Source: an uncultured Verrucomicrobiae bacterium (lineage in GTDB: Bacteria > Verrucomicrobiota > Verrucomicrobiia > Chthoniobacterales > Terrimicrobiaceae). From it: a stretch of 64,000 nucleotides of DNA. The DNA lies in NCBI GenBank assembly GCA_963706955.1, contig CAVPOC010000008.1:384001-448000 (forward strand), written 5' to 3'. The position numbers and the translations under genes are program-made. Shown here in pieces: positions 3,876-61,558 of the stretch. The notes below the pieces were generated by a model. The model searched no databases. It was not told where the DNA came from and worked only from the letters and a program-made list of their open reading frames with translations. How positions within the stretch are numbered: the first letter of the stretch is position 1; each line of letters starts with the position of its first letter.

Positions 3876-4470
3876 TTAGTATTTGACGGAACAACCGTAT
3901 GGCTTCGTGTTCGGCACCGACACAGCCTTCCCAGAGGTCGCTTCCGTCAGCGCGGCCTTCACGAAGTTATTCGACCCTTTAACAGTTGAAGGATCAGGCG
4001 TCGGCTTGTCATCGATCGCTCCCGCATAGATCAGAGTCCCCTCAGGATCGACGACGAACATCTCGGGCGTCGTCTTCGCATTGTAGAGCTTGCCCACCTT
4101 GCCATCCTCATCCACGAGGTAAGCGCTGGCCGCCCAACCATATTCAGAGATGCCTTGTCTTGGCAGCTTCCGGAGTTTCGTTGCCCTGCTTTCCAGGAGC
4201 CGACGAACAGATCGAAAGCCAGACGACACCTTTATCGGCAAATTCCTTTTGCAACTTTTGCATATTCTCCGAGCCGTAGTGCTTCTTGACGAATGGACAC
4301 CCAAAATTCACCCATTCGAGCACGACATACTTTCCTTTGTAGTCAGAAAGCTCGTGCTGCTTGCCCGAGAGATCGGGAAGCGTAAAGTCGGGCGCTGGTT
4401 TGCCCACTTGCGGAGCGGCGTAAGCTGAAACAGCCAGAGCAACGGCGAAAAGTGCAGGTAAGATTTTCAT
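3876..4470 (-). CDS. Exported thioredoxin-fold redoxin (AhpC/TSA-like), frameshifted at ~4155
   Basis: Signal peptide, APDFTL, VLEWVNFGCPFV; second frame carries AKTTPEMFV, YAGAIDD, PYGCSVKY. Confidence 0.85.
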
Positions 4471-4522
4471 GGTCCGAGAAGTTATTCACTTCGGACGCTC
4501 GCGCAAGTTGTGAAGAATTTCT

Positions 4523-6602
4523 TTATCCTCGGGCCTTGGAAAGCGCATCGAGGACAATCCTTTCGGTCAACAGTTCCGGCAGAATGATCGGCTGATCAGC
4601 CTTGCCGCGGGGATAAAGCACGTAAAATGGCACTCCCACGCGCCCGAACTTTTTCAGAGCGGCGGTGATCTCGGGATTGGCATTGGTCCAATCAGCCTTC
4701 ATGGGGACAATACCATCTTTGGCGAACGCTTCGCGCACCGCAGGAACATTGATCGCGGTGCGCTCGTTGAATTTGCACGAGATGCACCAGTCTGCTGTGA
4801 AGTCGACGAAGACAGCTTCTCCGGCATTTAGCAACTGTTCGAGCGCGCTTGTGGAGAACGGCTTCCAATCGATGCCCTCACCCGAGCGCTTGGCGGTCTC
4901 AGGTGTCGCCGAACCCGCGAAGATACCCGGGAGAAAGGTTCGCGCACCGAAAAGGACGACCAGGGTGATGACCGTCAGCGAGATGAGCCGCGCTCGTCGG
5001 GACGAGAGCGGTCCGCAAAAGGCGCCATAAATCCAGCAGGCCAAGGCAAGACAGAGAAGGAACGCGCACGTCCCCAGGACGGCGGTGAGTCCCCTTTGAT
5101 TGCCAAGAATGTAGAGGAGCCAGAGGAGAGTCGCCAAAAGCGGGAATCCCATGAATTGTTTTACCCGTTCCATCCACGACCCCGGCTTGGGCAGCAGCTT
5201 CAACCAACCCGGACGGGCAGAGAGGAAAAAATAGGGAGCACTCATCCCGAAAGCTACCGACGCAAACATCGCCAGGATCACTATCCAGGACTGACTAAAG
5301 GCAAAACCAAGGGCGGTTCCGAGGAACGGAGCCGTGCAAGGCGTCGCGAGCAGTGTTGCAAAAATCCCTTGGAAGAAGGAACCGGCGTAGCCTTCCTGTG
5401 AAGAAGCGTCCGCCAGTGCGGTGCTCGCGCGGCCGGGTAAAACAATTTCGAAGACGCCGAAAAGATTGAGCGCAAAGACCAGCACGATGCAGCTGATGAC
5501 GAAGTTAAACCAGGGATTTTGAAACTGAAATGCCCACGTCACTTCACTGCCAGCGAGCTTCAGTGCCACAATGACTATTCCGAGCCCCAAGAACCACGCA
5601 AAGATTCCTCCGACAAACGCCAACCCATGGCGAAAGATCCTCTCTGGATGATCGCCGGCCTGGCGAATAAAACCAAAAATCTTCAGCGAGATCACCGGAA
5701 GCACGCACGGCATCAGGTTCAGGATCAGTCCGCCCACGAATCCGAAAAGCAACGCTTGCCAGAGACTTGTCGCGTTCGGGGCCGCCGCCGAGACCTGCGC
5801 GGGCATACCGGGGACGACCGATGTTTGCTCAGTCGAGGAGACCAGCCAGCCTTTGCGATCCTCCTCTTTTTCGACCACCAAGACCCCGCGAAACTCGCTT
5901 GAGTCTGCAAGCGTAATCGTCGATTGCCCGTCTTTGAATGGGTCCGTTCTTTGGATGAGTCACCTGTTCGCCCTTTGGTGGCAGAGGGTAAAGATCGACC
6001 GACTTGGCACCGGCTAAGTCGCTTACCGTCAGATCCAACGAAGTGCCACTCTTCGTCCACTTCAGCGAGTACGGCGGTGCTGTGGCTGCGGGAAGAATCG
6101 AGCGGAATTCGTCGAAGAGCTCCGCGTTTGCTCGTGCGGACTGATCGGCAACGGGAAGAGACAGTTCCAGGTTCGCTGATCCCGGAATGCATATTTCTGC
6201 ACAGACCAGCCAGTCGACCTTGGCCTGAAGTGTAACGGTAGTCTCCGAAATCTTCGCAGGGGCTACAATCGCCGTCAGGAGAAGAACCTTGTCTTTGTAG
6301 GCGTAGACTTCGATGTCACCCGGCTCGAGCACACGGTGCGGGAGAGGCCACTGGATCGGTCCGGCTACGAAACCTTCGGGAAGTGTCCAGCTAATCGAGG
6401 TGGGCAGCCCAGCGTCACCGGGATACTCCCAATAGGTATGCCAGCTAGGCTCCATCTCCAGCAGGACGCCGACTTCAAACGGCTTTCCGGGAACAATCGC
6501 CGTCGTATCGGCCAGGAGGGAAGCCTTGACGAGCGTCTTGCCCTCAAAGACCTGCGCGTGCGCGACTATCGTCAGCAGGCAAAAGAGAACGCAGCGAAGC
6601 AT
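4523..6602 (-). CDS. dsbD: Thiol:disulfide interchange protein DsbD (N-terminal DsbD/DsbC-like, membrane and thioredoxin domains), frameshifted at ~5936
   Basis: WHTYW..PGDAG and VCAEICIP; LNLMPCVLPV, LATPCTAPF, DFTADWCISCK. Confidence 0.9.
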
Positions 6603-6727
6603 GCCTTTCGCTTACCACACCGGCAGGTGGCGTGCAAATTGGGCCCGGAGAAGATCGACCGCTCGTAAGCAGCAGCCTTACCCCGGAAAAGTGCCGGAAC
6701 CCAATCTCCTAGCCCGCAGGAGACCGG

Positions 6728-7702
6728 CTAGTCGCCGTAGCCGTTCGGATTCTTAACGTGCCACGCCCAAGCGCTTTCCACAATGGTCCGGATATCCTGG
6801 TATCTCGGCTTCCATCCAAGTGCTTCCCTGATGCCGTCAGAGGAGGCAATCAGCCTGGGAGGGTCACCAGGCCGTCGCGGTTTTTCAACCGCCTTGATGT
6901 CCTTGCCGGTGACCTCCCGACAGGTTTGGATCACTTCTTTGACAGACGTTCCGCCGCCGGTCCCCAAGTTAAAGCGCGCGCTCTTCTCGGCTTTTAAGGC
7001 CAGGATATGAGCCTGCGACAGGTCGAGAATGTGAATGTAGTCCCGAATGCAGGAGCCGTCTGGGGTGGGATAATCGGTGCCGTAGATATCGACGGCTTCG
7101 CGCTGCCCAAGCGCAACCTTCAGAATATTGGGGATCAGGTGCGTTTCAATGCGATGATCTTCACCAAACTTTTCCGTCGCGCCGGCGGCATTGAAATAGC
7201 GCAGAGCGATATACTTCAAACCATGAATCTCATCGTACCAGCGGAGAACCTTCTCAAAGAGCAGCTTCGATTCTCCATAAGGGTTGATGGGGATTTGCGG
7301 CATCGACTCGTCGATGGGGACACGATCAGGAATTCCAAATGTCGCGCATGTCGAGGAAAAGACGAACTTCTTCACACCGCTCTCAACAGCGGCGTCGAGC
7401 AGGTTCACGCCGTTGGCCACGTTGTTTCGAAAGTATTTCGAAGGATTTTGCATTGACTCACCGACGAGAGCGTTGGCGGCAAAGTGCATGACTGCATCCG
7501 GCTTCACTTCACTCATCGCCCGGCTGATGACGGTGCGGTCCGCCAGATCGCCCTGAAAGAATTCTGCTTTGGGATTCACGGCTTTGCGATGGCCTTCCGT
7601 CAGATTGTCGAACACAGCTACTTCGTAGCCTTCGTTGAGCAATTGTTCGACGCAGATGCTGCCGATGTAACCTGCTCCCCCAGTGACAAAAATCGTCTTC
7701 AT
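6728..7702 (-). CDS. galE: UDP-glucose 4-epimerase
   Basis: VTGGAGYIGS, FSSTCATFG, PYGESK, LRYFNAAG, CIRDYIH; ATG at 7702. Confidence 0.95.
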   Translation of the reverse strand: MKTIFVTGGAGYIGSICVEQLLNEGYEVAVFDNLTEGHRKAVNPKAEFFQGDLADRTVISRAMSEVKPDAVMHFAANALVGESMQNPSKYFRNNVANGVNLLDAAVESGVKKFVFSSTCATFGIPDRVPIDESMPQIPINPYGESKLLFEKVLRWYDEIHGLKYIALRYFNAAGATEKFGEDHRIETHLIPNILKVALGQREAVDIYGTDYPTPDGSCIRDYIHILDLSQAHILALKAEKSARFNLGTGGGTSVKEVIQTCREVTGKDIKAVEKPRRPGDPPRLIASSDGIREALGWKPRYQDIRTIVESAWAWHVKNPNGYGD

Positions 7703-7790
7703 TGAAGAAAAGTTGCTATCTGGATTACACAGGACAATCAATAGCGGAAAAGAACTCCCCACCCCCTGGTCTCAACATTGGCAGATGCTA

Positions 7791-8095
7791 TAGGAGACTG
7801 TCGAAAAACTCACGACTGTCACGCGCGAGCTCTTTGGGGTAAATATCGGTGAAGCGACGAAGGAGCATCCCCTCAAGGGGCTGTAACTGAGGAGCGACGC
7901 CCGTGAGGGGAAGGGCCCCTCACCCTTCCAAGGTGCCCCAAAGAGTTCGCGCCCTCCGGGTTGCGCTAATTTTCGGCCCTCGCGGTGTCGCCAAGCTTGT
8001 CCGTAGCTCTGCGGCTACGACCTGCGCTTGGCTCCTTGCGATCTTCCGAAAATTGGCAGCAACGTGGCATACGTGAGTTTTTCAACAGTCTCCTA
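7791..8095. mobile_element. MITE-like non-autonomous element with 24-bp terminal inverted repeats and nested internal hairpins
   Basis: 7791-7814 TAGGAGACTGTCGAAAAACTCACG versus 8072-8095 CGTGAGTTTTTCAACAGTCTCCTA (23/24 reverse-complement match); no credible ORF inside; outer TA on both ends. Confidence 0.75.
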
Positions 8096-11000
8096 GGCGG
8101 CAGCCGCAAAACGGATGACGGCGTTTCTCAAACCACTTTCATCTCCCACCGCCAGACTTTCCGCCGCGCGAATTTCGAAGGTGAGCCCGGCATCATTGAC
8201 AATCTCGATGATCAGCGGCCTCTTGCCAGGAAATCGCCGAACAGCGTCGAGAATATCGGGGAGAACCCCTTCCGTGAGTTTTCCGCGGGCAAGTCGTAGA
8301 CGAACAGGCTTTAGGGAGGCTTTAGGCTTCAACGCCGCCAAGGAATTGATGATGGCCCGAACGCTGTCGTCGCGACGGGTAAGTCGAGCGGCAACCGAAA
8401 TCACGGCGCCAGGGTTCAGCAGAGAGCCCTTGTCTGCAAAAACTTCATCCCACGCGGTTAACTCCATCTGGCCGGAAAAGTCCTCCAGCACGATCACGCC
8501 AAACGGCTTGCCATCCTTCTTGGTGAACTTCTTTTCAACCGAACAAACGATGCCAGCGAGCCTGACCGTAGAAGATTCCTCGATCCGCTGCGCGGCGGAG
8601 ATGGTCGTAATCTTTGGACTATCGAAATGTCCTGAATAAACCTCCAGCGGATGGCCGGTGAGATAGAACCCCAGTAACTCCCGCTCGTAGGCGAGCATCT
8701 CGTTTCGCGGCCAAGGTTCTACGGTGGCCACCGGAGCTGCCGACCGATGGATGCCGTGCAGTTCTTCAAACAATGCTCCCTGCCCACTGGCTCGATCTCG
8801 CTGCAGACCCGCGGCGTGCAACATCGCCCTATCCAGATCCGCAAACAGCGCGGCGCGAGACTTCCCGAAGCAATCAAAGGCGCCACATTTGACGAGACTC
8901 TCCAAGATTTTTCTGTTCACAGTGCGCCCGTCAAGTCGTGCGCAAAAATCTTCGAGGGATCGGAAGAATCCCAACTTGTCGCGCTCTTCGATCACCGAAC
9001 GCATGGCGCCGGAGCCAACGTTCTTAATTGAGGCCAGTCCAAATCGAATGGCCATCCCTTGACCGAGCGGCTCCGGGGTGAAGTGCAGGCTGCTGGAATT
9101 GACATCCGGCGCCAGAATTTTGAGCCCCATGCGGGAGCACTCTGCGATAATCTCGGCCAGCCGATCGGTAGTTGATGCGTCATGGGTGAGCAGCGCCGCC
9201 ATGAATTCAACCGGATAGTGCGCCTTGAGGTAGGCAGTTTGATACGAAACCCATCCGTAGGCGGCGCTGTGTGACTTGTTGAAGCCATATTCGGCAAAGC
9301 GCGCGATGAAATCGAAAATAGCATTGGCGGTCGCTTCGGCTATGCCATTGACCCGCGCGCAACCTTTCACAAAGCGGTCGCGTTCCTTGGCCATCTTATC
9401 CCGGTCTTTCTTGCCCATGGCCCGCCGCAATAAATCGGCCTCACCAAGCGAATACCCGGCCAGCACGTTGGCTGCGCGTTGCACCTGTTCCTGATAAACC
9501 ATGATTCCGTAGGTTTCAGCGCAGACCTGCTCCAGAAGCGGGTGGGCATACTCGATACTCTTCAGGCCCTTCTTGCGGGCGATGTAATCGTCGATGAACT
9601 TCATCGGTCCCGGTCGATAGAGAGCTCCGATGGCAATGATGTCCTCAATGCACCCCACATCGAAGCGTCTGCAGCAACTGGTGATGCCGCCGCCTTCCAT
9701 TTGGAAGATTCCAAGCGTCTCGCCGCGGTTGTAGATATCGAAAGCAGCCAGGTCGTCGATAGGAATTGCTGCCAGGTCGAATCCTGGATTCGCTTCTCGG
9801 ATTCGTTGAACCGTCTCTTCAAGCACGGTGAGTGTTTTTAGTCCGAGGAAATCCATCTTGAGCATGCCGAGCTCAGTGAGAGCGTTCATCTGGTACTGCG
9901 TGATGACTTCGTTGTCCTTCCCGCGGCACAACGGGATGTACTCATCCAAAGGCCGATCACCAATGACCACCCCGGCCGCGTGAATCCCCGTGTTACGGCT
10001 CAGCCCTTCGAGGACGAGGGCGTAGTCCCAGAGTTGGCGGGTCGCTGGCTCGTTCTCCAGTGCCGAGCGGAGATCGGGATTCTTCTGCGCGGCGCTCGCG
10101 AGAGTCATATTCAACTCATTGGGGATCATCTTTGCCAGACGATCGGCGTCCGTGTAACTCCATCCAAGCACTCGGCCGACGTCGCGCACGACACTCTTGG
10201 CACCGAGGGTTCCAAAGGTGACAATCTGCGATACACACCGCTCGCCATATTTGCGGCGGACATAGTCGATCACTTCGCCGCGTCGCTCCATGCAGAAGTC
10301 CACATCGATATCCGGCGGGCTGATACGCTCAGGATTAAGAAAACGCTCGAAAATCAATCCATAACGGAGCGGATCGATGTCGGTGATGCCGAGGACAAAC
10401 GCGATCAACGAGCCCGCGGCAGAACCTCGTCCAGGCCCCACGGGAATTCCCCTCTGCCGAGCATAGCTAATAAAGTCCCAGACAATCAGAAAGTAACTGA
10501 CAAAGCCGGTCTTCTCGATGATGGAAATTTCGTACTCGAGGCGCTGACGAAGCTCGGCGTCAGATTCGGCCCTCGCACCATAGCGTTCGGCGAGGCCGCG
10601 CCAGCAAAGCTCGCGGAAAAATTTTTCCCGGGAAACTCCTGCGGGCACTTCAAAGGCAGGATATTTCGGCTGATCAAACTCGAGCTTCAGTTCACAACGC
10701 TCGGCGATCCGCAGGGTATTGCTCGAGGGCGTTCGGAAATTCGGAGAACAACGCGGCCATCTCCTCACCGGACTTGAAATAGAGCTCCGGAGCATATCGC
10801 ATCCGTTTCTCATCCAAGACCATCGCGCCGGTCCCGATGCAGAGCATCACGTCATGGGCTTCGTGATGCTCACGCTCGAGGAAATGGACGTCATTTGCCG
10901 CGACGAGATCAAGGCCCAAATCGCCTGCAATTCGCACCAGCCCGGGATTGCACCGCCGCTCTGCTTCGAGACCGTGATCGTGCAACTCGATGAAGAAATT

Positions 11001-11516
11001 CTCTCTTCCCAGCATCTCACGATATTCGCCCGCGACGCGTTTCGCTCCTGCAAAATCGCCTGAAAGAAGCTTGCTGTTGATCTCGCCCTTGAGGCAACCA
11101 CTCAACGCAATCAAACCGCCTGAGTGGATCGCCAGCAGATCCTTGTCGATGCGCGGCTTGTAGTAAAAGCCCTCCAGATGCGCGGCGGTGACAAGTTTGA
11201 CAAGATTGCGGTAGCCAGCCGCATCGGTCGCCAGCAACGTTAAATGAAAGGCGGCCTCCTTGCCGGTCGAGGCGTTGCGCTCGCGCAGAGAATTCGGCGC
11301 CACGTAGGCTTCGCACCCAATGATTGGTCGAATCCCGGCACGCTGAGCAGCCAGGTAAAACTCAATCGCGCCGTAAAGATTGCCGTGATCCGTTATTGCT
11401 ACTGCGGGCATCCCACAGGCGGCGGCCTTGGCAACGAGGTCCTTTGTGCGGATTGCGCCGTCCAGGAGCGAATACTCCGTGTGACAATGCAGATGGACAA
11501 AAGGGACCGCAGCCAT
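8093..11516 (-). CDS. dnaE: DNA polymerase III alpha subunit, with apparent 1-nt insertion at ~10721
   Basis: PHP domain HLHCHTEYSLLDG and AITDHG (ORF 10692..11516); GRGSAAGS, PPDIDVDF, YGFNKSH (ORF 8093..10813); 3424 nt minus 1 = 1141 codons. Confidence 0.95.
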
Positions 11517-53455: not shown

Positions 53456-54382
53456 TCAGTAGCTAAACGTTAGTCCACCGCTGGCCCAGACCTCGTTTTC
53501 CTGTTCGATTTGTTGAAGCGCAGTCAAAGCCACGCTGTAGTTGATTCCGCCGAATATCGAGACGAATGGATTAATCCTCCAACTGGCTAAGAGACCGAAC
53601 TGAAAATTGTTCCAACCGTAGTAATCGGTTGTATTATAGCCAAGGTTTATGCCGAGAAGGACATAAGGCTGCAGCTCGAAAATTTCCTTATAGACACGAA
53701 TCTCCCCATCAAGTCGAACCTCCAAATACGAGGAAGGCAGATGGACTACGTCGCTGACAAAAAACATCCCGGGCGTGACGTGCGGGATCACTGAGGTCCC
53801 TAAGAAAAAGAAGAGCTCGTGTCCATAACCGTCGGACGATTGCGCGGACTCGACAGGATCGCGCTCCTTCTGAACCTGTGCCTCGCGGTGAGTTCTCCCT
53901 AGAGAATGCGCGTGCGCTTCATTCGCAGGTCCCGCAGCCTGAGGCACAACGACGCTTCGCTGGTAGCTGAAATTGTACCCCGGAGTGATGAAGACCGGGC
54001 CAAGCTCAAACGTGGAGGAGACGGTGAAATCCCATTCCTGGTAACGGTTTCCAGTGCCGAACCCCCACCAACCGCCAAGGGTTAGATTTTGGAGGCGCAC
54101 CGCAAGCTCCATCGTATAGGCACCGTAGTCGCCCGTCTGGTCGACTCCATACTGAACTTCGCGGCTGGTCCAACCTGTTGAAAGCATCGCGGCCCAGCGA
54201 CGTTCCTTCTCCTTTCCCGTGGACGGTGCCGAAGATGAAGCGCTCGAGAAAGTTCGCTCTTTCCCATCCTCAAGCGGGTTCTGTGTTTCCTCTGTTCGGG
54301 ACAGGTGGGCGCCAATACCGTGAGACCAGACGCGGTTTATCTGAAGAAAGCTAATTGTCAGCAATAGAAACACTCTTCTCAT
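53456..54382 (-). CDS. Putative outer-membrane beta-barrel protein
   Basis: Signal peptide from ATG 54382; amphipathic aromatic strands; C-terminal GGLTFSY; His-containing N-terminus and loop. Confidence 0.7.
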   Translation of the reverse strand: MRRVFLLLTISFLQINRVWSHGIGAHLSRTEETQNPLEDGKERTFSSASSSAPSTGKEKERRWAAMLSTGWTSREVQYGVDQTGDYGAYTMELAVRLQNLTLGGWWGFGTGNRYQEWDFTVSSTFELGPVFITPGYNFSYQRSVVVPQAAGPANEAHAHSLGRTHREAQVQKERDPVESAQSSDGYGHELFFFLGTSVIPHVTPGMFFVSDVVHLPSSYLEVRLDGEIRVYKEIFELQPYVLLGINLGYNTTDYYGWNNFQFGLLASWRINPFVSIFGGINYSVALTALQQIEQENEVWASGGLTFSY

Positions 54383-54484
54383 CTCGGCGCTCTCCAGCAA
54401 ACGGCTGCGGGCGTCTGCAGCCCCTTCGCGCGAGAGTAGAGCACGCGTTCGCCCACGCCTAGATCTAAGTGTTTCGGCGAGGAT

Positions 54485-54501
54485 ACTTCCTAACAGGAAG
54501 T
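54485..54501. promoter_or_regulatory. Candidate operator (perfect 7-3-7 inverted repeat)
   Basis: ACTTCCT-AAC-AGGAAGT, ~100 nt upstream of the beta-barrel gene. Confidence 0.3.
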
Positions 54502-54585
54502 CGTTCTTAGCATCGGCCGCTTCGCTGTGCGCCACCAGCAAAGGACTTTGAACTCGGCCGAACGGTTCCAGCCGAGGAGTGCGCG

Positions 54586-55044
54586 CTAAACGGCCACCGC
54601 GTCCTGAAGTGCCACCACGACCGCTTCATGCCAGCCAGCGAGCGCCTCTTCGAAATCGACGTCATTGTCAACGCGGGCAAGCAATCGGCTGGCGCCACGT
54701 TCCTCAAACATCCGGTCGAGGTCCCGACCGCACTGACAGAAATTGTCGTAGCCCGTGTCACCGAGCGCGAAGACGGCAAACCGCAATCTACGAAGGGTCG
54801 CTTCTCCAAGATCTTTGACGTAATCGAAAAAAGAGATGCCATCATCCGGCGGCTCCCCATCCCCCCACGTACTGATCGCCAGGAGCACGGTTGATTCTTG
54901 GAGAAAATCGCGGGAATCGTAGTGCGCGAGATCGTGCACTCGTGCGGAAAGACCGGCCTTCCGCAGCGCCGTCGCGGTTTTCTCTGCACATTCGCGGGCG
55001 TTGCCAGTCATCGTCGCGTAAAGAATGGCGATATCCGTTCTCAT
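54586..55044 (-). CDS. Flavodoxin (MioC/YqcA-like)
   Basis: YATMTGNA, STWGDGEPPD, FALGDTGYDNFC. Confidence 0.92.
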   Translation of the reverse strand: MRTDIAILYATMTGNARECAEKTATALRKAGLSARVHDLAHYDSRDFLQESTVLLAISTWGDGEPPDDGISFFDYVKDLGEATLRRLRFAVFALGDTGYDNFCQCGRDLDRMFEERGASRLLARVDNDVDFEEALAGWHEAVVVALQDAVAV

Positions 55045-55931
55045 GTCTGGTCAGTGGAAAAATTTCGCGCAAGCTCGCGGAGGTGTCCGTTCCAGGTATC
55101 GAGCTCTGCGTCGACGGCGGCGACCACCGCGCAGACGAAACGACCTTCCGGGTCAAATGCCTTGAGCGCCAGGGATTGGGCGATCGTCTGGAGGAATACT
55201 TCCGCAAGTTTCGTAACCCGAAGGTGAACTCCAGCCACCTGGTCCCCGACGAAGATCCACTCCCGATCGCGGCGAAACATAGTCGGCGTCATGGCGACGC
55301 CCTGCACAGCCCCTTCATTGCCCACGATGATTTGGAAGCCCGCTCGTTCACCAGTGGCCACCTGGAAGAATGTCGAGAGTGCTTCGGACCGAAGCGTCTC
55401 CCCGCCCGTGGCGGACAACAGGAATGAATTCTCGAGCCACGACGCCACGCGGACACCCTCAAAGCCACGTGATGCGGAGGAGCTTTGGTTCAATTCGACC
55501 CAGGCGCGAAACGCCTCGAAGTCGGAATGCTCGGTGAGACAGATCTTGTGGATGACTTCTCCGCTGTGGTCGGAGAACTCGACGGCGTAAAGCCAACCCT
55601 CCCGGCGCGACTCGACGACTGCAGTTCCGCGCGCCCAAGAAGTAAAATCAAACTCGAGCGAACCGTCCACGGCACGGCCGCGATGGCCGCAAGGCACCGA
55701 AACCATCTGTGGGTATTCGGCAATGGTGCCGAGCACCGCGTAGCCATTCCGAGTAATCGCAAGGACCGGACCAAAGGCCGGCAGTTCCGAAAGGAGAAAA
55801 GGCCAACCCTCCCAAAGCCCAATCACGGCGCGGCCGTCCGCGACGCGGACATTCTCGCGAAGCACTGAGGCGACGAGCGGATTCTGAATCAGGCTCGATC
55901 CTCTGTCGTTGGGCTCGGTCCGATGCGGCAT
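55041..55931 (-). CDS. HemS/ChuX-like heme-utilisation-fold protein (two repeats), divergent
   Basis: GPVLAITRN..AV, W..., VEFSD..GEVIHKICL, VGNEGAVQ, GVHL, AFD..G pattern matches the HemS duplicated domain; start may be 55949. Confidence 0.7.
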   Translation of the reverse strand: MPHRTEPNDRGSSLIQNPLVASVLRENVRVADGRAVIGLWEGWPFLLSELPAFGPVLAITRNGYAVLGTIAEYPQMVSVPCGHRGRAVDGSLEFDFTSWARGTAVVESRREGWLYAVEFSDHSGEVIHKICLTEHSDFEAFRAWVELNQSSSASRGFEGVRVASWLENSFLLSATGGETLRSEALSTFFQVATGERAGFQIIVGNEGAVQGVAMTPTMFRRDREWIFVGDQVAGVHLRVTKLAEVFLQTIAQSLALKAFDPEGRFVCAVVAAVDAELDTWNGHLRELARNFSTDQT

Positions 55932-56041
55932 GCTAGAATTCAGCCACATCTCAGAAAAACGCGCTCACGCTCGATTGCAAAAAATTAGCGGCGACTTGCT
56001 TTGAGGCCTCGTCGCAGCTCCCAAGCGAGGACTCGAAAAAC

Positions 56042-56120: not shown

Positions 56121-57329
56121 TCACCCAATCGACGGTCGCATTTTGACTCCAGTGAGGAGTCGAGCTCCCAAGGCCCCCGCTGCGGCCGTAATCAGGCAGG
56201 TCGTCCAGACTGGCAGGGTGAATTTCATTATCTCCCCCCAATTGCCATTGGCCCAGACGCTAAGCGAATTGACCAGCGCGACAAGATAGTAGGAAAAAGG
56301 CATCGCCTTTTGGATCGCCGCCGGCTGGGCGAAGTAGCTCAGCGGAATGCCGACACCGGCGCCGATCAAGAGCCCCAACCGGACTGCCACGGGATGCACT
56401 CGTTCGAGACCGCGCGCGAGGACATAGGGAACCCCAATGAGGAAAATGGCGCTAAGCATCTCGTTATTTTGAAATCTAAGCCCCATAAGCATCGACACGC
56501 TCCGATGCATTAGAATCAGGCCGACGCCGATGACAAAGCCCAACCTTCTGCTCGCCAGGGCAAAAAAGGCAATTGCCTCAAGGACCACTCCGCTTGCGAA
56601 AAGTCCCCTCGCCATCCAGGGATGCTCCAGCAACCAGATCGCCTCCGGTGGGTCGCCTAGATCCGCCGGATTGAACCGGCTGAAATAGTGCTGCCTCTGT
56701 GTCTTGATCATATCGAGCGCGATGTAATGGGCATTCCAAAACCACATCCCACCGGTCGCGAACAGTTTAGTCAGGAATGACACCAGATAGGTCCCGGTAA
56801 CCACGACCTGACTTTGAACCAGAAGCCAGGAGTTGAGCAATGCGTCCGGAGGCTGCAACCGAAGGCCCTTTAGCACGGAGTAGTAGACGACGGTAACAGC
56901 CTGGACGAGCAGGGTCAGACCGATGATCTGATATCCGTGATGCGTGTAACCCTGCGAGTTATAGAGCGTGAACATCAGGCTGTAGGCGACCGCGAGCAGG
57001 GGAAGAACAATGGGGAGAAGCCAACCGGACGCGTAGACGAGAAGCAATAGGTAGAGGAGACCACGATACGCCGATAACTTCTCTGGATCGGATAGCCACG
57101 TCAGATCAAAGAAGCGCGCCAGGCCCACCGGATGGGGTTGATCGTGAAAGGGCACCTGCAAAGACAACGTCGAGGCAACCACGACCCCGAAAAGTAAACG
57201 GAGAAAAAAGCCCTCCAGCGAGCTGACTGTCGGCAGAGAAAAGAAGCCGGCCGCAAAGTTCCGCAGAGAAACGATCGCGTTATTCGGCAAAAAGGACACG
57301 CTTCTTCTCCTTGATCTCTCCGTCTTCAA
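56121..57329 (-). CDS. HTTM / vitamin K-dependent carboxylase-like multi-pass membrane protein, copy 1
   Basis: SQGYTHHGYQ, Q....TYLVSFLTKL, LEAIAF, LMHRSV.MLMGLRF; TTG start overlaps the upstream gene by 50 nt (start uncertain). Confidence 0.65.
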   Translation of the reverse strand: MKTERSRRRSVSFLPNNAIVSLRNFAAGFFSLPTVSSLEGFFLRLLFGVVVASTLSLQVPFHDQPHPVGLARFFDLTWLSDPEKLSAYRGLLYLLLLVYASGWLLPIVLPLLAVAYSLMFTLYNSQGYTHHGYQIIGLTLLVQAVTVVYYSVLKGLRLQPPDALLNSWLLVQSQVVVTGTYLVSFLTKLFATGGMWFWNAHYIALDMIKTQRQHYFSRFNPADLGDPPEAIWLLEHPWMARGLFASGVVLEAIAFFALASRRLGFVIGVGLILMHRSVSMLMGLRFQNNEMLSAIFLIGVPYVLARGLERVHPVAVRLGLLIGAGVGIPLSYFAQPAAIQKAMPFSYYLVALVNSLSVWANGNWGEIMKFTLPVWTTCLITAAAGALGARLLTGVKMRPSIG

Positions 57330-57759
57330 ATCGAATTTCCACGAGATGGAGTTGCAGCTTTTCGGGAAGGTCTTTCTCTCGCTTGGCCGACTGCTCCCTT
57401 AGCATTTGAAAGATCTCGATGCCGACCATGCGGTCCCGATCTCCCCTGCTTTGACCAGAGAGAGGATTGGTTTGTCGGCCGAGCTCTTTGGACTTCTTCC
57501 GATACGCCTTGCCCACTTGCGACGCAGTGACACCGGTTAAACTGCCGATAGGGATGGGTTGTCCGTCACCATCCGTGACCAGGAAGTATCCCCGTTCCGC
57601 ACTGGGGCGAGCGTACATCGGAAAGTTCGAAAAGGGGAAATTCTCTTTGGCGATGAGGCAGACCACCACGAAGATCACCAAGGCCGTCAGCGGCGTGTGC
57701 CATAGAAGCCGCGGCCATGGCTCCTGGCGTGAAAGTGCACTCGTCGACCGGCCGTTCAT
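57280..57759 (-). CDS. Small membrane-anchored partner protein (PFSxFPM motif), copy 1
   Basis: One TM, then ENFPFSNFPMY, VTD..GQPIP, LTGVT, ending LFAE; ATG 57759. Confidence 0.7.
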   Translation of the reverse strand: MNGRSTSALSRQEPWPRLLWHTPLTALVIFVVVCLIAKENFPFSNFPMYARPSAERGYFLVTDGDGQPIPIGSLTGVTASQVGKAYRKKSKELGRQTNPLSGQSRGDRDRMVGIEIFQMLREQSAKREKDLPEKLQLHLVEIRFEDGEIKEKKRVLFAE

Positions 57760-57769
57760 TGTTGGGACG

Positions 57770-58378
57770 CTACAACGTTTCCCAGGCGTCCAGCACAATT
57801 TGCGACCACGATTCGAGTTTGTCTCGCTGTTTCCGGAGTTCTTCGGGTGCGAGAAAACGGAGCTCGCGGATCGCTCTCTCCCGGGCGCGAACGGCGTCGT
57901 GGCGCAGCTCGACCACATGTACAACGCCAAGATGGACTTGCCCGACTTCAGTCGAGTCGTCGTTAATTAAAGCGGCGAGTCGATCCTCCCACGTTCCCTC
58001 GAACTTGAGTTCCTCGGCCACCTCCCGATGAACCGCGGCGCGGTAGGCATCCTTGTCGAAAGAGAAAAGACTCTCATCGCTGTCATTAATGTGGCCTCCG
58101 ATGCCGATCGAGCCCTTGTCGACCAGTCGCTTTTCACCAGATTTGGCTCCGCGCACGTAACGCAGAATCGTGTTCTCGAAAGTGAAGATCACGTAAGGAA
58201 TGATCTGCTTGAAGGCAGGATCCTGCTCTGCGCGTGACCGAGGCAGGAAAAAATTGTTTTGCCGTGTCATGAACGTCTCGATGTAGCGATCTACATCGCG
58301 CTCCAAGCCCTGGAACGCGCCAAGGTCATCAAAGAGAGCGCGGCGTATCACGAGCACATTTTCTTCATTCTTCTGCAT
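57770..58378 (-). CDS. NUDIX-family predicted phosphoesterase (COG4112-like)
   Basis: AEQDPAFKQIIPY, SIGIGGHIN, REVAEEL, VGQVHLG, LESWS. Confidence 0.85.
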   Translation of the reverse strand: MQKNEENVLVIRRALFDDLGAFQGLERDVDRYIETFMTRQNNFFLPRSRAEQDPAFKQIIPYVIFTFENTILRYVRGAKSGEKRLVDKGSIGIGGHINDSDESLFSFDKDAYRAAVHREVAEELKFEGTWEDRLAALINDDSTEVGQVHLGVVHVVELRHDAVRARERAIRELRFLAPEELRKQRDKLESWSQIVLDAWETL

Positions 58379-58453
58379 CCGCGATGAATGCTGCTTATGT
58401 GAAACAGCTCCGCCAAGCCTTATTCTCGGACCAACCGCGACGCTCGGGATCCT

Positions 58454-59662
58454 CTAGATTCGAAGACGATGCTTTCGAAGCGTTCCGCCGAGCAAGCGGG
58501 CGCCAATCGCACCGGCAAGAGCCATGGCGATGCAAGTCATCCACATCGGGAGCGTGAAGCGGAGAAAGTCAGTCACTCGGCCATTGTGCCAGACATCAAG
58601 TGACTCGATCAAGTTGCTGACGTAGACCGGGAGCGGCATTGCCGTTTGGATCGATGCAGGTTGGGCGAAATAACTCAGTGGAATCCCGACGGCAATTCCG
58701 ACGAGCACGCCCAGGCGCACCGTAGGATTGGCGATACGATACAAACACCATGCCACCAGAAACGGGAGGCCGACCAGGTAAATGGCGCAGAGCATCTCAT
58801 TGTTGTCAAACCTCAGACCCATCAGCCCGGCGATGCTCCTGTGCATGAGAATCAGCGCGACGCCAATCACGAAGGCAATCTTCCGGTTGGCAAGAGCAAG
58901 AAACGCGATCGCCTCCAAGAAGAAGCCCGTCCCAAACAGCGCGCGAGCCATCCAGGGATTTTCCAGCAGCCACATTGCTTCAACAGGATCCCCTGCATAG
59001 TTCGGATCGAGCGAGCCGTAGTAGAGCTGCCGGCGCGACTTAATCAAGTCGGTGGCAATGTAACTGGAGTTCCAGAGCCACAGCCCCCGAGAGTTGATCA
59101 ATTTCGAGAAGACCGAGATCAGATAGGTTCCCACGACGATCACTTGGCTCTGCCAGAGGAGCCACGAGTTGAGAAGCGCATCGGGAGGACGCAAGCGAAT
59201 GCCCCGGCAGAACGCGTCGTAAAGAACCGTGCCCGCCTGGGCAACCAAGGTCAGGCTAACAATCTGAAAGCCATGATGCGTGTAGCCTTGAGAGTTATAG
59301 AGAGTGAATGCCAAGACGTGTCCGAGCGCCAGCAGCGGAAGAGTGATCGGCAGCAGCACTCCAGCCGCGTAAAAGAAGAGGAGGGAGTAGATGACGCCCC
59401 GAAATATCGAATAAGAGAGAGGATTGGATAACCAGGTCAGATCAAAAAAATGGGCGAGTCCCGTCGGATGCGGTTGCGTGGAAAAAGGCACTTCAAACCG
59501 CAAGGTGTACGCCACCACGACAGCAAAAAAGACACGCAAGAGTAGGCCCTCAAGCTGCGTGACCTTCGGAGGAGAGAAAAACCCCGCCAGGAGGCGGCTG
59601 AACGGCCTTTGACTATTCCGCAAAAAGGAGCTCCTTGGTCTCTGTGACCTTCCCGTCGCCAT
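58454..59662 (-). CDS. HTTM / vitamin K-dependent carboxylase-like multi-pass membrane protein, copy 2
   Basis: Paralog of 56121..57329 (SQGYTHHGFQ, TYLISVFSKL, LEAIAF, LMHRSI); ATG at 59662 overlaps the upstream gene by 50 nt. Confidence 0.65.
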   Translation of the reverse strand: MATGRSQRPRSSFLRNSQRPFSRLLAGFFSPPKVTQLEGLLLRVFFAVVVAYTLRFEVPFSTQPHPTGLAHFFDLTWLSNPLSYSIFRGVIYSLLFFYAAGVLLPITLPLLALGHVLAFTLYNSQGYTHHGFQIVSLTLVAQAGTVLYDAFCRGIRLRPPDALLNSWLLWQSQVIVVGTYLISVFSKLINSRGLWLWNSSYIATDLIKSRRQLYYGSLDPNYAGDPVEAMWLLENPWMARALFGTGFFLEAIAFLALANRKIAFVIGVALILMHRSIAGLMGLRFDNNEMLCAIYLVGLPFLVAWCLYRIANPTVRLGVLVGIAVGIPLSYFAQPASIQTAMPLPVYVSNLIESLDVWHNGRVTDFLRFTLPMWMTCIAMALAGAIGARLLGGTLRKHRLRI

Positions 59663-60074
59663 ATTGTATCTCGACGCGAAACAGTTGAATGCCTGGCGGA
59701 AGAACCTGCCCGCGCCGAGTTGCCTGATCCCGTAGCATAGTGCAGATCTCCCGGCCAATTTCGTCGTTCCTGCCCGCGTTTGGCCCTTCTGCTGTCTCGA
59801 TCGCGCGTTCGCGTTGACGCGATTTTCGCCAGTGCATCTTTCCAATCTTCGGAGGGGTAACGCCGGTGAGCCTCGAAATTGGCAGAGGCTGACCGGCAGA
59901 ATCGGTCACCATGTAGTACGCCCTTGGCGCTGTCGGTGACGAAAACATGGGAAAATGCGAAAACGGGTAGGTCTCTTTGAGGATCAACGAACCGGCCACA
60001 AAGATCGCCAGGGTTGTCAGCGGTGTCTGCAAAGCGAGCCGATACCAGGGTATTGCGGAAGTAGAAGCGAACAT
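59613..60074 (-). CDS. Small membrane-anchored partner protein (PFSxFPM motif), copy 2
   Basis: Paralog of 57280..57759 (TPLT, ETYPFSHFPMF, VTD..GQPLP, LTGVT, LFAE). Confidence 0.7.
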   Translation of the reverse strand: MFASTSAIPWYRLALQTPLTTLAIFVAGSLILKETYPFSHFPMFSSPTAPRAYYMVTDSAGQPLPISRLTGVTPPKIGKMHWRKSRQRERAIETAEGPNAGRNDEIGREICTMLRDQATRRGQVLPPGIQLFRVEIQYGDGKVTETKELLFAE

Positions 60075-60203
60075 GTCCTATGACTTGCCCAATGCTGACC
60101 TCGCAGGCTGAGCTCGCCAAGCTTGTAATCGAGCGGCAATCGAGCGATTCCCATGGAAACCAGCGGCCTTGCGCACCGCGGTGAACTCGCCGAGACTCCG
60201 CAG

Positions 60204-60722
60204 ATGCGTCTCATTCCAATTCTTTTGATCATCTCAGGCTCAGTCTGCGTGGCTCAGCAGGAGAGCGAGAAGGAACGCGCCGGTCGCATGTTCTTTCCCC
60301 CGGAATCGAAAGAATCGACTAACTCGCCAAAGCAAACTTCCGGTCCGCGGCGCGAAACCAGCGCTTCTGACCTCATCGATATGTTTTTCCTCGGCTTGAA
60401 GGCCGGGCAAGTCGATGCGGCGTACGACGGTCTCGTGAAAGGGAGTGTCATCGCCGACCGCAGCGAGGATGTCGCCGGTCTTAAGGATCGCACCCGCCGT
60501 GCGCTGGATAACTTTGGCCCGATTTCCGGCTACGAAGTTCTGGAGGAAAGGACCGTTGGCAGCACGCTTCTCCGCCGAACCTGCATTTCGTTCAATTCCG
60601 ATTTGCCGTTGCGCTGGAGATTCTACTTCTACAAGGCCCAGGGCACGTGGAAGCTGGTTGACTTGCGCGTCGATGATGGCTTGGTGGAGCTTTTCGAGGA
60701 AAGTATCCGCCCACGCAAATGA
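60204..60722 (+). CDS. Exported hypothetical protein
   Basis: Signal peptide MRLIPILLIISGSVCVA; 'PLRWRFYFYK...W' C-terminus; ATGA-coupled to the next gene. Confidence 0.7.
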   Translation: MRLIPILLIISGSVCVAQQESEKERAGRMFFPPESKESTNSPKQTSGPRRETSASDLIDMFFLGLKAGQVDAAYDGLVKGSVIADRSEDVAGLKDRTRRALDNFGPISGYEVLEERTVGSTLLRRTCISFNSDLPLRWRFYFYKAQGTWKLVDLRVDDGLVELFEESIRPRK

Positions 60723-61558
60723 TCAGCCGCTTCCTTAGCTTCATCCGTTTTTCGCATACGATCTTCGCACTACCTTTTGCGCTCGGTTCGATGTTTGTCG
60801 CGGCTCACGGGCTGCCCTCGTTTCGGGTATTTGCACTTGTCGTCATGGCGATGGTCTTCGCGCGCACAGCGGCGATGACCTTCAATCGTCTCGCAGACTG
60901 GGAAATCGACAAGCGCAACCCCCGCACCGCGGGCAGGCACAAACTGGTTTCGAAGCGTCTGGCAATCGGCGCTTGCCTTCTGTCGGCTTTGTCGTTTGTC
61001 GGCACCGCCTGGATGATCAATCCCCTCTGCTTTGCGCTCTCACCGGTCGCACTCCTGATCGTATTCTTCTACTCGCTGACCAAGCGTTTCACGCACGGCG
61101 CCCAGTTTTTTTTGGGCCTGGCACTCGGGGTGGCCCCGATTGGAGCCTGGATCGCGGTCACCGGCAGTTTCGCCATGCCGCCGCTCGTCCTGGGTGCCTC
61201 CGTCCTCTGCTGGGTAGCCGGGTTCGATATCATCTACGCGACGCAGGACCTCGACGTCGATCGACGTGAAAATTTACATTCCATGGTCGTGTGGCTCGGA
61301 GTTCCCCGGGCGCTCGCCATGGCGACGTTACTTCACGCGTTCGCGCTGGCCGGCTTTCTGTTCTTCGGGGCGATCGCCCGCCTCGGTCCCGTTTACTTTC
61401 TCGGACTGGGCTTGGTTGGCGCCGGACTGGTTTACGAACACCTTTTGGCGGTCAAGGGAACGGTCGCTGCAATTAACAAGGCCTTTTTTCAAGTCAACGC
61501 CGCGGTGAGCGCGATTTTCGTTTTGACTATCCTTGTCGACCAACTCGTTGCCAGGTGA
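60719..61558 (+). CDS. UbiA-family polyprenyltransferase (MqnP-like)
   Basis: FSHTIFALPFA, AMTFNRLADWEIDKRNPRT, YSLTKRFT, WVAGFDIIYATQD. Confidence 0.88.
   Translation: MISRFLSFIRFSHTIFALPFALGSMFVAAHGLPSFRVFALVVMAMVFARTAAMTFNRLADWEIDKRNPRTAGRHKLVSKRLAIGACLLSALSFVGTAWMINPLCFALSPVALLIVFFYSLTKRFTHGAQFFLGLALGVAPIGAWIAVTGSFAMPPLVLGASVLCWVAGFDIIYATQDLDVDRRENLHSMVVWLGVPRALAMATLLHAFALAGFLFFGAIARLGPVYFLGLGLVGAGLVYEHLLAVKGTVAAINKAFFQVNAAVSAIFVLTILVDQLVAR

Follow-up and report, generated by a model that had tools for sequence, protein, structure and literature searches.

What reaction would a bacterium carry out with two diverged copies of a carboxylase-like membrane protein, each encoded behind a small partner of its own? 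To our knowledge, the vitamin K-dependent carboxylase has many relatives in bacteria, almost none of which has a known substrate. The question is raised here by a 64,000-nucleotide stretch of DNA from an uncultured Verrucomicrobiae bacterium of the Terrimicrobiaceae lineage (assembly GCA_963706955.1, contig CAVPOC010000008.1, positions 384,001 to 448,000), the whole of which we call the window. Five open reading frames (ORFs) on its minus strand, between 56121 and 60074, run in the order A2-B2-Nudix-A1-B1, where A is a small single-pass protein and B a larger polytopic one. We consider it probable, with moderate confidence, that A and B would together form a two-subunit, quinol-dependent membrane enzyme of the HTTM type that has been duplicated to give two specialized copies. 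An initial annotation, made from the DNA letters alone, had proposed a split, two-subunit enzyme of this superfamily kept as two diverged copies; that structural reading appears largely right, and the ORF list has all five genes exactly where it had placed them. The five genes are as follows.

59613-60074, minus strand: A2, ORF for the second copy of the single-pass partner (153 amino acids [aa]; 48% identity to A1; A-profile match at E = 8.4e-69)
58454-59662, minus strand: B2, ORF for the second copy of the polytopic membrane protein, of the putative HTTM-superfamily branch (402 aa; 60% identity to B1)
57770-58378, minus strand: Nudix-fold protein of the TM1382 type (202 aa), directly upstream of A1-B1
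57280-57759, minus strand: A1, ORF for the first copy of the single-pass partner (159 aa; 59 homologues, none with a Pfam domain)
56121-57329, minus strand: B1, ORF for the first copy of the polytopic membrane protein (402 aa; 117 homologues)

Protein B as a putative branch of the HTTM superfamily

The placement of B is carried by a profile-to-profile comparison. As a reference we aligned 14 annotated HTTM/SdpB proteins from named plasmid records, the HTTM genes having been found via annotated DUF393/DCC1 plasmid genes, next to which HTTM and DUF5819 genes are annotated. The Pfam HTTM model recognizes ten of the 14 at E ≤ 0.001, with a best E value of only 9.7e-10, which indicates both that the set is valid and that the Pfam model is insensitive. 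With hhalign, an 89-sequence profile of B aligned to this set over 253 columns with a probability of 97.3%, an E value of 2.2e-11, and a score of 90.1. The reversed template scored 23.9, the best of 20 column shuffles 16.6, and the best of 20 shuffles of 20-column blocks 35.7. The 14-sequence alignment was needed for this result, as probabilities reached only 31% and 66% when the B profile was aligned to single HTTM sequences. In the other direction, a hidden Markov model (HMM) of the 14 references was run against the 5621 six-frame ORFs of the window and of 26 A-B loci from other genomes (L001 to L026); at E ≤ 10 it returned 13 matches, all of them B ORFs, and B2 of the window was matched directly (E = 3e-4).

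The predicted structure points to the same superfamily. The AlphaFold2 (AF2) model of B1 is all-helical, with a predicted local distance difference test score (pLDDT) of 83.4 and a predicted TM-score (pTM) of 0.83. When the model was compared with the PDB by Foldseek, the top matches listed were 13 entries of human GGCX, the vitamin K-dependent gamma-carboxylase, at probabilities of 0.80 to 0.99, and all others stood at or below 0.28. In a protein-language-model Atlas, the clusters nearest to B1 (score, 0.91 to 0.92) carry the Pfam HTTM domain (PF05090) in 21 to 25% of their members. Moreover, one of 112 B-family representatives, P0310, ends in a DCC1-like thiol-disulfide oxidoreductase domain (E = 2.6e-13), a C-terminal fusion that is also found in classical HTTM proteins. 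On these comparisons, B is best described as a branch of the HTTM superfamily that lies outside Pfam HTTM as now defined.

The homologues of B1 are all unnamed or "hypothetical," and the hosts that are named are Terrimicrobiaceae, Verrucomicrobiaceae, and Verrucomicrobium. When 1.84 billion representatives were scanned by HMMER with a profile of 29 B sequences, 618 clusters passed E ≤ 0.001; at 1e-10 and 1e-30 the numbers were 434 and 228. The matches listed are mostly about 300 aa long and cover profile positions ~10 to 300, so the B proteins of the window would consist of a conserved core of ~300 residues and a C-terminal extension of ~90. Other searches added little: a word-indexed homologue search with a broad alignment returned the same Verrucomicrobial set, with no Pfam-annotated protein in it; sequence searches of PDB chains with the B and A profiles gave noise or nothing; and the PADLOC defence models matched neither A nor B. 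As a separate observation, the B-family representative P0260 (571 aa) has a C-terminal extension of ~250 aa (residues ~320 to 571) with no Pfam match.

Conserved residues and the putative quinol site

Residues R44, H131, Y181, K188, W196, E251, H275, and F286 are invariant in all 89 B-family proteins. Most of them have a counterpart in the profile alignment to the 14 HTTM/SdpB references, where R44 corresponds to Arg in 11, Y181 to Tyr and K188 to Lys in 13 each, and W196 to Trp and H275 to His in all 14, as does G102 to Gly. E251 corresponds to Gln in seven references and to Glu in three, M282-G283-L284 falls on the M-G-L motif of the references, and F286 is offset by one column from the reference Phe. 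B thus has the features that mark the HTTM superfamily: a catalytic Lys with a nearby Trp and, in a later helix, His and M-G-L. The correspondence between B residues and GGCX numbering is presumed here, by way of the bacterial references and of the order of GGCX motifs.

In human GGCX, Lys218 is described as the base, with Trp223 stacking on it and Asp263 beside it, while Phe299 holds CO2, and Asn159, His160, and Tyr395 bind the substrate Glu (PMC12647623). In a bacterial HTTM protein, Lys189, Trp195, and Phe273 are placed next to a modelled menaquinol (10.64898/2026.08.19.745780). Judged by its conserved positions, B appears to keep the cofactor-activating residue set and to differ in the substrate-side segment. 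The Asn-His motif by which GGCX binds Glu is not kept, and S125-Q126 and H131 are found instead (GGCX itself is not in the sequence alignment). Because this region (Asn159/His160) differs in B, carboxylation of Glu specifically is not implied.

Protein A as a putative new partner family

All 59 homologues of A1 are unnamed or "hypothetical," and the named hosts again fall within the taxa listed for B. The AF2 model of A1 (pLDDT, 78.8) has a transmembrane (TM) helix at residues 23 to 40, a motif at 41 to 52 with pLDDT below 50, and then an alpha/beta domain. The motif that directly follows the TM helix reads E-N/T-Y-P-F-S-x-F-P-M; in this segment P42, S44, P47, M48, and P52 are invariant across the family and F43 and Y49 nearly so. 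The N terminus is probably cytoplasmic, which would put the alpha/beta domain outside. A is a single-pass protein that belongs to no known family.

The tie between A and B, which the initial annotation had read as two subunits of one enzyme, is very strong. Each of the 30 B genes in the 26 loci from other genomes is immediately preceded by an A gene on the same strand (30/30), and 4 of 145 representatives are fusions of the two proteins, with A before B in P0238, P0261, and P0267 and B before A in P0319. In L001 (6324-7047), one part of the A profile (positions 1 to 53) matches in one reading frame and the other (positions 51 to 159) in another, which suggests a frameshift or a sequencing error.

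Gene layout, duplication, and divergence of the two copies

A1 has 159 aa and B2 402 aa when counted from ATG, and their reading frames are open as far as 57930 and 59845, respectively; B1 starts with TTG, and its public gene call (P0001) has 392 aa, not 402. With the starts used here, A and B overlap by 50 nucleotides (nt) in each pair (20 nt for B1 at 392 aa), and the gaps are 10 nt between Nudix and A1 and 75 nt between B2 and Nudix. Because of these overlaps and short gaps, the five genes look like one operon, their co-transcription being suggested by spacing. A promoter and terminator scan found no promoter-like sites, and the terminator-like sites were mostly within genes.

The two B proteins share 238 of 398 aligned residues (60%; E = 2e-170) and the two A proteins 74 of 155 (48%; E = 5e-49). 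All the motifs previously listed as common to the copies recur in our alignments: PFSxFPM, VTDxxGQP, LTGVT, and a terminal LFAE in A1/A2, and QPHPxGLA, YNSQGYTHHGxQ, NSWLLxQSQ, TYLxSxxxKL, LEAIAF, and LMHRS...MGLRFxNNEML in B1/B2. The tandem A2-B2-Nudix-A1-B1 order is also present in three other genomes (L006, L008, and L010), so we rejected faulty assembly as an explanation of the duplication. In two further genomes, the pairs lie on separate contigs (L001 with L009 and L002 with L007).

That both copies are kept intact despite their divergence, as had been claimed, is borne out by their evolution. Relative to L008, the ratio of nonsynonymous to synonymous substitution rates (dN/dS) is 0.08 to 0.21 across all five genes, with dS unsaturated at 0.44 to 0.71, and all five are under purifying selection. 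In a tree from a quick maximum-likelihood search, B1-type and B2-type sequences (six rows each) form two clades (Shimodaira-Hasegawa-like approximate likelihood ratio test [SH-aLRT] support, 99), which are sisters (support, 93) within a long-form Verrucomicrobial group. Over 399 columns, 146 are fixed and identical in the two clades and 22 are fixed and different; 12 of these 22 fall in residues 161 to 240, around the helix that carries the Lys and the loop from Lys to Trp. This clustering around the catalytic Lys suggests that the two copies act on two substrates.

Multiple pairs are found outside this group too. L016, a Prosthecobacter metagenome-assembled genome, has a short-form and a long-form A-B pair in tandem (4373-5925 and 6503-8173), and the genomes of Verrucomicrobium sp. 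BvORR106 and BvORR034 each contain two loci, one of the long form and one of the short (L013/L019 and L014/L020, respectively). The possession of several A-B pairs per genome thus seems to have arisen more than once.

Proposed mechanism and its alternatives

We propose that A and B would be subunits of a single membrane enzyme, with B as the catalytic subunit, made up of its ~300-residue core and a C-terminal helical extension. The enzyme is probably quinol dependent, to judge from the residues conserved in B: K188, held by the stacking W196, and the acidic E251 would correspond to the residues that deprotonate the quinol in GGCX, and H275 and F286 are invariant as well. Menaquinol and O2 would give rise to a strong base; on the outer side of the membrane, this base would deprotonate a carboxylate-bearing substrate, which would then be carboxylated. 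Such base-generating, probably carboxylating chemistry is what homology suggests as the most likely mechanism. The invariant, Pro-rich and aromatic-rich segment that follows the TM helix of A may pack on B, where it would cap the active site, or complete it, and determine the choice of substrate; we propose this because DUF5819 is predicted to do likewise. By that analogy, A would have the role of DUF5819 or SdpA for the classical bacterial HTTM proteins and of the fused luminal domain in GGCX. The substrate would be an endogenous molecule of the envelope or periplasm and not a secreted toxin. The pair would have been duplicated in an ancestor of the Terrimicrobiaceae-type lineage, and the A1-B1 copy would have become coupled to the TM1382-type Nudix-fold gene.

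Several results weigh against this proposal. At the level of families, Pfam and NCBIfam have no match to A1, A2, B1, or B2 at E ≤ 1; NCBIfam offers nothing for B, and Pfam HTTM matches neither B1 nor B2 at E ≤ 1, none of 29 family members at E ≤ 10, and none of 112 representatives at E ≤ 0.01. The earlier description of B as HTTM-like is upheld only by the profile comparison, the catalytic-site residues, and the weak but specific fold match to GGCX, and not by the Pfam HTTM model. Taken by its absolute values, the fold match itself is poor (E = 0.13; TM-score by query, 0.36; root mean square deviation, ~10 Å). Where the bacterial HTTM references have D-G-G-D-N, the B family has an invariant S125-Q126-G127...H131. 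As for A, none of 29 A proteins matches DUF5819 in Pfam at E ≤ 10, and hhalign gave a probability of 0.3% for A against DUF5819/SdpA with whole alignments and found nothing when these were trimmed to the TM-plus-motif region. Nor did Foldseek find a credible match to the A model in the PDB (best probability, 0.25). No DCC1-like, VKOR-like, or substrate gene was seen in the window, and the linkage to a prenyltransferase gene, described below, is restricted to close relatives.

Some of these same results could be read to mean that B is a distant HTTM relative without redox function (a scaffold, a transporter, or a lipid-handling protein), with A as a structural partner. The missing Pfam and NCBIfam matches, the low TM-score to GGCX, and the absence of a redox partner gene from the window would all fit. 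However, the Lys, Trp, and acidic residue that deprotonate the quinol in GGCX and the HTTM-conserved His and Phe are invariant in 89 of 89 B proteins, which is hard to explain without retained chemistry, and one family member is fused to a DCC1-like thiol-disulfide oxidoreductase. We regard a nonredox B as most improbable.

The closest parallel to the proposed two-subunit enzyme is provided by the pairs of DUF5819 and HTTM proteins, with or without a DCC1-like protein, of Bacillota and Actinomycetota, for which only structure predictions have been reported so far (10.64898/2026.08.19.745780). There, the DUF5819 TM helix is predicted to take the place of a GGCX helix and its domain the position of the GGCX clamp, with two post-TM residues touching the quinone pocket (10.64898/2026.08.19.745780). 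The A-B module is similar in that the gene for an HTTM-type protein of ~300 to 450 aa is directly preceded by that for a small one-TM protein with an outside domain, in that K188, W196, and F286 of B match the Lys, Trp, and Phe near the predicted menaquinol site, and in having extra C-terminal helices that are missing in GGCX and an occasional DCC1-like fusion. It differs in that A has no similarity to DUF5819 and B no Pfam HTTM match, in the invariant S-Q-G...H of B where DUF5819-linked HTTM proteins have D-G-G-D-N, and in its chromosomal, duplicated genes with no DUF393/DCC1 gene adjacent in the window. The small partner also comes first in annotated plasmid loci, DUF5819-HTTM in eight and SdpA-SdpB in three; in L028 a hypothetical 168-aa gene precedes the HTTM gene, and two archaeal HTTM genes have no annotated small partner.

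SdpA/SdpB and YitP/YitO of Bacillus subtilis, in which the gene of a small partner again comes before that of an HTTM-type membrane protein, bring up a second function for A-B, the maturation of an antimicrobial peptide that would be secreted and have its gene at another site in the genome. The sdpA-sdpB gene order is matched by a small single-pass gene upstream of and overlapping an HTTM-type gene, the reference profile matched by B includes SdpB-annotated proteins, and SdpA and SdpB are described as needed together for one step of toxin maturation (PMC6818787; 10.1101/2025.03.21.644447). Yet the initial annotation had seen no SdpC-like precursor, and neither did we: a phmmer search with three annotated SdpC-family proteins gave none at E ≤ 1 among the 5621 ORFs of the window and the 26 loci, and an SdpA/DUF5819 profile gave none at E ≤ 1 in the same set. 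No SdpI or SdpR family occurs among the Pfam matches of neighbor genes. The neighbors are housekeeping genes that vary with lineage, unlike a mobile toxin cassette or a toxin-immunity locus, and a tblastn search of plasmids returned nothing for either B1 or P0260. The earlier comparison of A with SdpA does not extend to the sequence, in which A has no detectable similarity to SdpA or DUF5819; the likeness is one of architecture only. Toxin maturation of the SdpAB/YitPO kind is, in our judgment, very unlikely.

Among the fold matches of B, that to GGCX ranks first and is alone in being consistent (though weak, at a TM-score of 0.36), and the catalytic Lys, stacking Trp, acidic residue, His, and Phe come in the same order in both. 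GGCX is a single chain to which luminal cap and clamp are fused, whereas B has 402 aa, is all-helical, and lacks a fused C-terminal luminal domain, the separate A probably supplying that part. To press the parallel further, A-B could be a chromosomal, housekeeping, menaquinone-dependent carboxylase that modifies the cell's own periplasmic or envelope proteins after translation, with A as the substrate-recognition clamp and each copy devoted to a substrate set of its own. We know of no substrate or propeptide of the gamma-carboxyglutamate (Gla) type in these bacteria, and we hold this specific version to be quite unlikely. If it were true, a chromosomal protein carboxylase in Verrucomicrobia and the wider 618 clusters would be the bacterial counterpart of Gla modification. 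MloH of malonomycin biosynthesis, compared here by its description, is likewise a bacterial HTTM enzyme with an accessory region attached, much as in the A-B and B-A fusions; it differs in belonging to a natural-product cluster and in acting on a carrier-bound intermediate, and there is no such cluster around A-B.

Whatever its substrate, the module represents a large branch that curated family libraries have missed (618 representative clusters at E ≤ 0.001), in which the quinol-activating residues appear to be kept and a partner subunit of an undescribed family is always alongside. It could reveal the role of HTTM proteins in the bacterial envelope and the way in which the luminal domain that is fused in the animal enzyme may be replaced by a separate subunit. 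Being chromosomal, conserved in the phylum, and duplicated with divergence close to the active site, it should make a clean genetic system. Our searches of the literature on HTTM in Verrucomicrobia, the HTTM domain, and DUF5819 found no paper on the A-B family.

Genomic neighborhood

A Nudix hydrolase had been described as part of the module, which our comparison does not bear out in general. The gene between the two pairs is homologous to PDB entry 3e57, the uncharacterized Thermotoga protein TM1382 (E = 1.5e-21, residues 5 to 194), stands upstream of A1-B1, and has a dN/dS of 0.08 relative to L008. But it scores 19.5 bits with Pfam NUDIX (PF00293), below the cut-off of 21.1, and it is found only upstream of A1-type genes, in 8 of the 26 loci (L001 to L006, L008, and L010), all from close Terrimicrobiaceae-type relatives.

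The genes on either side of the five are as follows.

60153-60722, plus strand: protein of no family (189 aa), paired with the UbiA-like gene and divergent from A2; membership in the module uncertain
60719-61558, plus strand: UbiA-like polyprenyltransferase of the MqnP-like menaquinone type (Pfam UbiA, E = 6.6e-49); membership in the module uncertain
54586-55949, minus strand: HemS/ChuX-type haem-degrading protein and flavodoxin, in overlapping genes directly downstream of B1
53456-54541, minus strand: protein of 361 aa, unmatched in Pfam and NCBIfam; lies downstream of the flavodoxin gene and is kept in L002 and L010

The UbiA-like protein reaches 269 bits with TIGR01475 (cut-off, 180.8) and 215 to 257 bits with the MqnP models, below their cut-offs of 375 to 430. 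The pair that it forms with the 189-aa gene, which overlaps its start, lies divergently upstream of A-B in L003 to L007, L009, and L010 and in none of L011 to L026. This neighbor raises a further possibility, namely, that B has kept the HTTM fold and quinone site and acts on a small molecule or lipid and not on a protein, as in quinone metabolism or modification or in the carboxylation of a lipid-linked intermediate. Besides the MqnP-like gene, which is a conserved divergent neighbor in the window and in those seven loci, a UbiE/COQ5-type methyltransferase gene 3.5 kb upstream in L023 would be in keeping with such a role, as would the substrate-side motif of B, which is unlike those of GGCX and of the bacterial HTTM set. 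There is also a precedent in MloH, described as an HTTM enzyme with a nonprotein substrate (10.64898/2026.08.19.745780; PMC12647623). However, since the UbiA gene is missing from all of L011 to L026, its linkage may be inherited synteny only; the L023 methyltransferase gene is separated from A-B by four unrelated genes; and no biosynthetic cluster surrounds A-B in the loci examined. A small-molecule or lipid substrate strikes us as unlikely.

On the other side of the module, the HemS/ChuX and flavodoxin genes are kept downstream of B1 in L001 to L004, L006, L008, and L010 and in none of L011 to L026. In six Verrucomicrobiaceae-type loci, a protein of ~620 to 700 aa with no Pfam or NCBIfam match is encoded divergently upstream of long-form A-B (L011:4341-6344, L012:4510-6360, L013:4281-6359, and L017:744-2834; also L014 and L018). 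Its copies are 53 to 59% identical to each other, and it is possible that this protein is a functional neighbor or a substrate candidate. A separate protein of ~690 to 800 aa, also without a family match, is encoded after UbiA in L007 (3050-5128), L003 (2070-4469), L004 to L006, L009, and L010; this protein has no tblastn match in the window, in which UbiA is directly followed by the gene for a major facilitator superfamily transporter.

Elsewhere in the window, the gene for DNA polymerase III alpha on the minus strand (8093-11516) is divided into two overlapping ORFs, one (10692-11516) with the PHP domain and the other (8093-10813) with the rest of the protein; this suggests a frameshift or a sequencing error. 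Between 26001 and 32000, genes for Mrp/Mbh-type antiporter subunits coincide with a strongly negative AT skew of -0.22 to -0.29 and a raised G+C content of 0.60 to 0.61.

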